This document shows, piece after piece, positions 11,452-12,704 of a stretch of 64,000 bases of DNA. Both the position numbers and the translations under genes were made by a program. Each line of letters starts with the position of its first letter. The first letter of the stretch is position 1. The DNA lies in NCBI RefSeq assembly GCF_016903815.1, contig NZ_CP069973.1; one strand, 5' to 3'. The notes beneath the pieces are model-generated. The model was not told the DNA's origin. It did no database searches and was given only the letters and a program-made list of their open reading frames with translations. The stretch is from Escherichia coli. GTDB taxonomy: Bacteria > Pseudomonadota > Gammaproteobacteria > Enterobacterales > Enterobacteriaceae.

Positions 11452-12609
11452 GTGAAACGACGACAGGCATTTAAATTCCAGTTAAGACCCGGTGGTCAAC
11501 AGGAGCGTGAAATGAGGCGCTTCGCAGGCGCATGTCGTTTCGTTTTCAATCGTGCTCTGGCGCTTCAGAATGAGAATCATGAGGCCGGTAATAAATACAT
11601 CCCTTACGGGAAAATGGCTTCCTGGCTGGTTGAGTGGAAAAATGCCACTGAAACGCAATGGCTTAAAGATGCCCCGTCACAGCCATTGCAACAGTCACTG
11701 AAAGACCTTGAGCGGGCTTACAAAAACTTCTTCCAGAATCGGGCTGCTTTTCCCCGATTCAAAAAGCGGGGACAGAATGATGCATTCCGCTACCCGCAGG
11801 GCGTTAAGCTCGATCAGGAAAACAGCCGTATTTTTCTGCCGAAACTTGGCTGGATGCGCTACCGGAATAGCCGTCAGGTCACGGGAGTTGTGAAAAATGT
11901 CACTGTCAGCCAGTCCTGCGGTAAGTGGTACATCAGTATTCAGACCGAAAGTGAAGTATCCACTCCGGTTCACCCTTCAGCATCAATGGTCGGGCTGGAT
12001 GCTGGCGTGGCTAAACTCGCCACGCTGTCAGATGGCACAGTCTTTGAGCCTGTAAACAGTTTTCAGAAAAACCAGAAGACGCTGGCGAGACTTCAGCGAC
12101 AGTTAAGCCGCAAGGTCAAATTCAGCAACAACTGGCAGAAGCAGAAACGCAAAATACAGCGACTGCATTCCCGTATCGCAAATATCCGCAGGGACTACCT
12201 TCACAAAGTCACAACGACCGTCAGCAAAAACCACGCAATGATAGTCATTGAGGATTTGAAGGTCAGCAACATGTCAAAGTCAGCAGCGGGTACGGTCAGC
12301 CAGCCGGGGCGCAATGTCCGGGCAAAATCAGGTTTAAACCGTTCGATACTGGATCAGGGCTGGTATGAAATGCGCCGCCAGCTTGAGTACAAGCAGCTCT
12401 GGCGTGGCGGTCAGGTGCTTGCTGCTCCGCCAGCGTACACAAGCCAGCGTTGCGCGTGCTGTGGTCATACAGCGAAAGAAAATCGCCTGTCACAAAGTCA
12501 ATTCAGATGCCAGGTATGTGGATATACAGCGAACGCCGATGTAAATGGCGCTCGTAACATTTTAGCGGTGGGGCACGCCGTTCTTGCCTGTGGAGAGATG
12601 GTGCAGTGA
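11452..12609 (+). CDS. tnpB: IS605-family TnpB (OrfB), RuvC-like nuclease with C-terminal zinc finger; candidate RNA-guided (OMEGA) endonuclease
   Basis: 385-aa ORF from GTG; N-terminus [10 protein letters not shown]...[14 protein letters not shown] typical of TnpB; candidate RuvC motifs VGLDAGV, IVIEDL and [10 protein letters not shown], with CxxC...CxxC (CACCGH...CQVCGY) between them. Confidence 0.85.
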
Positions 12610-12704
12610 GGCCGCTCGTTGAAGCAGGAACCCACCGAAATGATTCAGGCGACAGCCTGAACGTAGCAGGGATCCACGTCCTTCAGGGCGTGGAGGATGT
12701 CAAT
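12460..12704 (+). ncRNA. predicted omega (right-end) guide RNA of TnpB, overlapping the tnpB 3' end and the right-end hairpin
   Basis: Inferred from the general architecture of IS200/IS605 TnpB loci, where the guide RNA scaffold comes from the tnpB 3' end plus right end; the only sequence support is the right-end hairpin at 12676-12695. Extent not determined. Confidence 0.3.

Follow-up and report, generated by a model that had tools for sequence, protein, structure and literature searches.

An IS609 Copy in Escherichia coli yajI with a Dead Transposase Gene, a Functional-Looking TnpB, and a Predicted Guide against the Empty Site

In the 64,000-nt stretch of Escherichia coli DNA analyzed here (hereafter, the window), yajI is interrupted by a copy of IS609, which is an ordinary and already catalogued element. 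We regard it as highly probable that this copy combines a dead tnpA, a functional-looking tnpB, and an omegaRNA guide aimed at the empty yajI site, a mechanism that we infer from the established one for TnpB. The identity and architecture of the element are near certain; the activity of the nuclease in this strain, judged from the sequence and a structural model, has in our opinion slightly better than an even chance.

Results

Boundaries and Genomic Setting of the Element

The window neighborhood corresponded to the E. coli chromosome, with the gene order secF-yajD-tsx-yajI-nrdR-ribD. When compared with K-12, yajI was colinear up to window position 10953 and resumed from 12704, with TTCTTTAT meeting CCGGTGCGCC at the left junction and GGAGGATGTCAA meeting TGAGTTGCGTCATCTC at the right one. 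These junction reads, set against the intact K-12 yajI, place the element at 10957-12703 with no target duplication, and the comparison with the empty yajI site indicated a clean insertion 3' of TTAT. The element ends with GGATGTCAA at 12703, and base 12704 is the first one of the flank. An earlier note on this DNA had delimited its region of interest as 11452-12704; its start is the first base of tnpB, and its end falls one base inside the flank. The features of the element and its surroundings were the following:

10957-12703, + strand: IS609 (IS200/IS605 family), 1747 bp, from the end-to-end alignment to K-12 IS609, with borders from the intact K-12 yajI
10547-10956, - strand: 3' portion of the interrupted yajI (SadB/YajI lipoprotein), from the RefSeq annotation and K-12 comparison
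12704-12833, - strand: 5' part of the disrupted yajI, carrying the start codon, from the ORF list, RefSeq annotation, and K-12 comparison
10953-10956, + strand: left-flank TTAT, the target motif of TnpA and putative TAM of TnpB, adjoining the left end on its 5' side and found in about ten independent insertions
10973-10992, + strand: left-end subterminal hairpin CCCCGTCC-TTCA-GGGCGGGG, with AAAA before it, from the DNA fold and kept in relatives
12673-12694, + strand: right-end subterminal hairpin TCCACGTCC-TTCA-GGGCGTGGA, from the DNA fold, with compensatory changes in relatives (helix 7)
12700-12703, + strand: TCAA right-end cleavage motif, the final four bases of the element, with which nearly all relatives end as well

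The alignment of the yajI copy with the K-12 feature 'insertion sequence:IS609' showed 97.7% nucleotide identity over the whole length (1747/1748 bp), i.e., more than 95% identity to the reference element, at full length and with the same ends. Moreover, hairpins were present at both ends, and the insertion was 3' of a tetranucleotide, with neither duplication nor inverted repeats. The subterminal hairpins with TTCA loops and the terminal TCAA are hallmarks of the IS200/IS605 family, of the IS608 type. IS608 from Helicobacter pylori is the paradigm of IS200/IS605 transposition, and it shares with the yajI copy the TCAA right end, a tetranucleotide target 5' of the left end, and subterminal hairpins at both ends; the gene arrangement and sequence differ, and the target tetranucleotide is TTAC in IS608 and TTAT in our element. 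The IS608 AAAG reportedly pairs with TTAC, and the AAAA before the left-end hairpin of the yajI copy would pair with TTAT in the same manner.

The GC skew was positive on the + strand, placing the top strand of IS609 on the lagging-strand template, which is the orientation that this IS family prefers. The element was found at this yajI site in 340 out of 5426 complete E. coli genomes. An unrelated second IS200/IS605-family element was observed in the secF/yajD interval (8335-8793, + strand), about 2.2 kb from IS609. It is of the IS200C type, its tnpA seems intact, and in an identical genome RefSeq places WP_000526135.1 there.

TnpB Retains the Catalytic Triad, the Zinc Finger, and the Fold

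The tnpB gene within the element and its key residues are located as follows:

11452-12609, + strand: tnpB, 385 aa, GTG start, from the ORF, Pfam, NCBIfam, alignments, and AlphaFold2 model
11998-12000, 12250-12252, and 12538-12540, + strand: codons of the RuvC residues D183, E267, and D363, respectively
12451-12519, + strand: zinc-finger cysteines, C334 to C356

The Pfam analysis detected HTH_OrfB_IS605 (PF12323) at residues 1-48, OrfB_IS605 (PF01385) at residues 162-277 (E 1.5e-34), and Cas12f1-like_TNB (PF07282) at residues 304-370 (E 4e-23), and the NCBIfam model NF040570 (guided_TnpB) gave 388 bits, with a cut-off of 100. The 385-aa TnpB with a typical N-terminus that had been read from the sequence was thus recovered by both resources, and together with the modeled fold they delineated an N-terminal HTH/WED-REC part, the RuvC domain (OrfB_IS605), and the zinc-ribbon TNB domain. 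A chance ORF was ruled out by the E-values. In RefSeq, the identical protein WP_071779335.1 is named 'RNA-guided endonuclease InsQ/TnpB family protein'.

The three RuvC motifs and the CxxC...CxxC zinc finger proposed in the earlier note were confirmed as an Asp-Glu-Asp triad and a CCCC finger (C334, C337, C353, and C356) within the TNB domain. The motifs start at residues 180 (VGLDAG), 264 (IVIEDL), and 361, the third one holding D363 in NADVNG. A phmmer search of the PDB sequences aligned residues 2-372 to ISDra2 TnpB (E 1e-54), with D183/E267/D363 matching D191/E278/D361 and the four cysteines matching the zinc-finger cysteines. These ISDra2 residues are the catalytic center in the cryo-EM structure (PMC10097598). 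Conservation was assessed in an alignment of the window TnpB with 76 diverse homologues (38-62% identity) from a 50%-representative search; the initial homologous-protein search returned only near-identical E. coli sequences, which made it unfit for this analysis, and was used to set the length norm. Among these 77 diverse sequences, conservation of the triad reached at least 90%; as to the cysteines, three were invariant and the other was at least 90% conserved.

The AlphaFold2 model, generated from the diverse-homologue alignment, had a mean pLDDT of 94.8 and a pTM of 0.86, and its last RuvC helix (362-379) was complete. When this model was compared with the PDB by Foldseek, the best matches were the ISDra2 and ISFba1 TnpB complexes (TM 0.80-0.84), with 8h1j and 8iaz as the top fold matches and 8exa also matched. 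Fold and alignment agreed in this structure-aware check of the catalytic residues, in which the Asp and Glu were kept. The Deinococcus radiodurans ISDra2 TnpB-omegaRNA complex (8EXA/8H1J/8BF8) is alike in domain order, D-E-D triad, CCCC zinc finger, and fold, whereas the protein identity is about 32-34%. Collectively, with the triad and the zinc finger in place, tnpB looks functional, as far as sequence and model allow us to judge.

A Premature Stop Removes the Last 17 Residues

12607-12609, + strand: lineage-specific premature stop TGA (TCA in relatives), from the alignment of the relatives, at the cost of the last 17 aa

The earlier description of tnpB as apparently intact stands in that the ORF has no internal stop; it does not stand for the length, as the protein has 385 of the 402 aa that are the family norm among near-identical E. 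coli homologues. The equivalent codon is TCA in K-12, in about 27-28 other relatives, and in two other yajI::IS609 strains, and an exact 90-mer with the TGA was found in 93 records only. The yajI::IS609 carriers JNEC-KY178 and XH992 encode a 402-aa TnpB, which, along with the restriction of the TGA 90-mer to those records, indicates that the nonsense change is secondary and lineage-specific.

The loss of these residues is probably harmless for cleavage, by analogy with ISDra2, where residues 376-408 are disordered and their deletion leaves DNA cleavage (PMC10097598), and where stop codons past residue 376 were tolerated in a deep mutational scan (PMC11844463). Residue 385 of the window TnpB corresponds approximately to ISDra2 residue 383. 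The nonsense mutation could, alternatively, be the first step of tnpB decay. The whole element, tnpB included, would then be a silent or inactive remnant heading to pseudogenization, and the intact motifs would reflect a short time since function or gene conversion from active copies. We find this explanation unlikely, albeit worth weighing: the absence of the nonsense mutation from the relatives speaks for it, whereas the truncation is confined to a tail that ISDra2 can do without, and the catalytic and zinc-binding residues are all kept.

A Covarying omegaRNA Is Predicted over the tnpB 3' End and the Right End

12558-12703, + strand: predicted omegaRNA scaffold, about 146 nt, from agreeing RNAalifold and single-sequence folds and from covariation

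The consensus fold was computed for 25 distinct right ends of the IS609 type, 76-98% identical, over their final 151 nt, and the window sequence alone folded into the same structure. The closing helix pairs ACAUUU (12558-12563) with GGAUGU (12695-12700), just 5' of the boundary, and encloses four stem-loops, the last of which is the right-end hairpin. The consensus contained 45 pairs, 98.3% of the cells were standard pairs, and 8 pairs had changed on both sides, a covariation count from which the right ends of L011, L047, L048, and L050 were excluded, these being the most divergent, with an insertion and a poor alignment. Control analyses failed to reproduce this pattern: none of 500 shuffles matched the observed pairing or covariation, and pairing fell to 38-47% when partners were shifted in the slide control. 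A conserved, covarying structure is thus predicted to span the tnpB 3' end and the right end and to stop at the element boundary, in agreement with the earlier proposal that the guide RNA would come from these two parts.

The ISDra2 omegaRNA is likewise encoded by the 3' end of tnpB together with the right end, and the bases 5' of its guide take part in long-range pairing (PMC10097598); the long-range pairing beside the IS609 guide resembles the pseudoknot position in that molecule (PMC10097598). The two systems differ in the scaffold (about 146 nt predicted for IS609 vs. 116 nt for ISDra2), in the TAM (TTAT, as inferred here, vs. TTGAT), and in that tnpA and tnpB of IS609 are divergent.

The TGA change of the window sits in an omegaRNA loop. 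At 12616, the T of the window gives an A-U pair, whereas K-12 has an A.C mismatch, and such retention of the omegaRNA pairing is a further argument against a decaying remnant. The Rfam search of positions 9000-15000 (E<=1) returned sub-threshold matches only, and the omegaRNA was named by no curated family. Within 12587-12716 (+ strand), these were RAGATH-18 with 29.5 bits (gathering threshold 44.9) and HgcC with 24.9 bits (50). The core shared by both, CCUGUGGAG...GAAGCAGGAA, is the stem of omegaRNA helix 3, which hints at a relationship of these families with the IS609 omegaRNA.

The Predicted Guide Matches the Empty yajI Site

12704-12719, + strand: predicted 16-nt guide TGAGTTGCGTCATCTC, antisense to yajI, the first flank after the right end

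The guide length was set to 16 nt by analogy with ISDra2 (PMC10097598). The TTAT left flank was found in about ten independent insertions (window, K-12, L005, L006, L009, L012, L014, L019, L035, and L037), the exceptions being two relatives (L011 and L007) with a TTAC flank. The bases before the left-end hairpin covaried with the flank, AAAG accompanying TTAC in these two relatives and AAAA accompanying TTAT, as would be expected if they were the DNA guide of TnpA for the target site. In L005 and L019, TATAT was observed before the left-end hairpin, and the flank was still TTAT. A survey of TnpB elements includes TTAT among the common left-end cleavage motifs, and the insertion flanks suggest that the TAM is TTAT.

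It had been put forward that the guide flank is antisense yajI sequence and that a functional complex would be aimed at its own insertion site. In agreement, TTAT followed by TGAGTTGCGTCATCTC is the empty site elsewhere: the 90-nt rebuilt empty site with TTAT was found with 100% identity in at least 12 genomes, all with yajI intact. The empty site of K-12 reads TGAT-TGAGTTG (G at L003:1720 vs. T at window 10954), as opposed to TTAT-TGAGTTG in the at least 12 genomes. Intact yajI alleles with TTAT would therefore be perfect targets by sequence, and those with TGAT might escape. Within the window, the only similar target site was the right junction, with TCAA replacing TTAT. Since TCAA, not TTAT, precedes this guide match, the resident copy would not be a target.

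The Transposase Gene Is a Pseudogene

11020-11444, - strand: tnpA pseudogene (Y1 HUH transposase), from RefSeq of identical genomes and translation against L035/L037 and P0143

When compared with the intact 136-138-aa TnpA of the relatives L035, L037, and P0143, the window tnpA showed an in-frame TGA at 11158-11160 (TTA in relatives), a 1-bp deletion near 11357, and loss of the canonical stop, so that the frame runs on through the left end. In identical genomes, RefSeq tags the gene as 'frameshifted; internal stop; incomplete', and the dead transposase noticed earlier beside tnpB was in this way corroborated. The element lacks a functional Y1 (HUH) TnpA and is non-autonomous: with tnpA inactivated, it cannot excise or move unless a cognate TnpA is given in trans. 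That several lesions kill tnpA is also in line with a decaying remnant.

The K-12 IS609 copy at ydcL/ydcO (InsQ, b1432) matches the yajI copy in its ends, in its hairpins, and in a left flank of TTAT, and it has a tnpB read from the same GTG and a tnpA pseudogene with the same TGA, despite 2.3% overall divergence. This shared TGA suggests that the copy entering yajI was probably already transposase-dead and was mobilized in trans. The yajI copy differs from it in the insertion site, and so in the guide, in the TnpB length (385 vs. 402 aa, with 14 amino-acid differences), and in the extra 1-bp tnpA deletion. Other E. coli do carry TnpA ORFs of the IS609 type that are uninterrupted (P0133 and P0135). 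Four E. coli TnpA ORFs of 160-224 aa (P0121, P0126, P0133, and P0135) have no internal TGA, yet have lost the canonical stop; they cross the left-end hairpin into the flank and acquire site-specific C-terminal tails.

Most tnpB elements are non-autonomous (Meers 2023, 10.1101/2023.03.14.532601), and the tnpA-less ones in the same study resemble the yajI copy in that tnpB and the omegaRNA are kept and TnpA is needed in trans. A degraded tnpA is still there in the yajI copy, whereas truly tnpA-less IS609 occurs on the plasmids L006, L007, and L009. Short IS609 derivatives were common on enterobacterial plasmids, these three among them, and on viral or phage-like contigs (L012-L019 and others); in them, a left end of about 60 nt is joined straight to tnpB and the right end, there is no tnpA, and tnpB starts with ATG.

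Expression Context and Possible Selection on tnpB

The promoter scan of the + strand from 10800 to 12900, covering about 650 bases upstream of tnpB, found no sigma-70-like promoter. The GTG start of tnpB had no obvious Shine-Dalgarno sequence, and plasmid and phage relatives use ATG. The weak start and the lack of a predicted promoter are again what a silent remnant would show, and IS608, the closest well-studied element type, has a TnpB that was inactive in an in vivo assay (Meers 2023, 10.1101/2023.03.14.532601), an example that an intact catalytic motif is no guarantee of activity.

A weak terminator-like hairpin, CAGCGTGCTGACGCTG, with a T-rich stretch behind it, was observed at 12726-12741 (+ strand), 23 nt past the right end; it could provide the 3' end of a read-out transcript or be a chance occurrence inside the yajI coding sequence. 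Transcripts initiated at the yajI promoter would cross the right end and the omegaRNA region in the antisense direction. The yajI 5' fragment is open at 12645-12893 (- strand) and meets a stop about 20 codons inside the right end, so that a truncated precursor of the lipoprotein, ending in IS-encoded residues, could be made.

In four tnpA-dead copies, the pN/pS of tnpB was 0.16-0.34, with a significant synonymous excess (p from 9e-6 to 0.014), so the substitution pattern among these sequences is purifying. These values, significantly below neutrality (p<0.02) in copies with the same dead tnpA, stand against the whole element being a decaying relic. However, when same-site yajI copies (L060 and L061) were compared with the window, tnpB differed by about 1.8%, the tnpA remnant by 0.6-0.8%, and the flanks hardly at all, and many of the window-specific bases recurred in other IS609 copies, e.g., L046. 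This contrast and the recurring bases suggest gene conversion among IS609 copies, as read from the alignments, and it could mimic purifying selection, in which case the relic explanation would gain ground.

The purifying pattern in tnpA-dead copies could also be taken to mean that TnpB and the omegaRNA were kept after tnpA loss for a host benefit or a locus-specific drive, for example, by cutting intact yajI alleles as they enter or foreign DNA with a match, or by acting as an RNA-guided binder or regulator. The presence of IS609 with tnpB in about 90% of E. coli genomes fits such an exaptation, and TldR, an exapted TnpB of a nuclease-dead type, provides a precedent. The RuvC triad is, however, intact in our protein, unlike in TldR-type proteins, and a TldR-like nuclease-dead exaptation was thereby ruled out. 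Moreover, the guide is whatever flank adjoins the right end and varies by copy, as in a selfish element, and neither associated host genes nor a conserved target were seen. We thus hold an exapted host function to be extremely improbable. A narrower possibility, to which we give little credence, is that in tnpA-dead chromosomal IS609 the TnpB and omegaRNA are kept by selection as a locus-specific 'anti-reversion / allele-drive' nuclease. Equally doubtful is its corollary that the nuclease cuts incoming or recombinant intact yajI of the TTAT type, with the common TGAT allele of K-12 possibly escaping. If true, this would shape recombination and insertion spread among E. coli lineages, and it would also account for the mosaic tnpB divergence between same-site copies.

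Discussion

The reading that we favor, a transposase-dead IS609 copy with a functional-looking TnpB guided to the empty yajI site, would work as follows. An IS609 element with IS608-like ends inserted 3' of TTAT in yajI. TnpB would bind an omegaRNA that spans the 3' end of tnpB and the right end (about 146 nt) and continues into about 16 nt of flank, TGAGTTGCGTCATCTC, and the complex would cut DNA with TTAT directly before this sequence. The target would be the scarless donor joint left after excision or any uninterrupted yajI allele of the TTAT type, while the resident copy would be spared by the TCAA that precedes its guide match. Once cut, the site would be repaired by recombination with a copy that bears the insertion, and the element would in this way be kept or re-installed. 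The donor joint consists of the TAM and the right-end flank (Karvelis 2021, PMC8612924; Meers 2023, 10.1101/2023.03.14.532601), and with tnpA dead, such joints are not made by the element itself.

IS609, the InsQ protein name, and the TnpB-omegaRNA homing mechanism are all already known. The interpretation given in the earlier note is supported as correct and conventional, being the published TnpB homing model. Our literature searches on IS609 with TnpB and on InsQ turned up no functional work on the E. coli protein, the sole mention being one purification: an 'IS609' TnpB was purified for a published trans-cleavage screen, with no result for it in the text consulted.

The finding is of little importance beyond correct annotation. 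It does provide concrete, testable predictions for the E. coli IS609: TTAT should serve as the TAM and TGAGTTGCGTCATCTC as the guide, the scaffold should measure about 146 nt, and TnpB is naturally truncated to 385 aa. In natural E. coli populations, empty yajI alleles with TTAT ('cleavable') occur alongside others with TGAT (possibly 'resistant'), and this mix could offer a modest natural setting in which to test whether TnpB drives the retention of a transposase-dead element.
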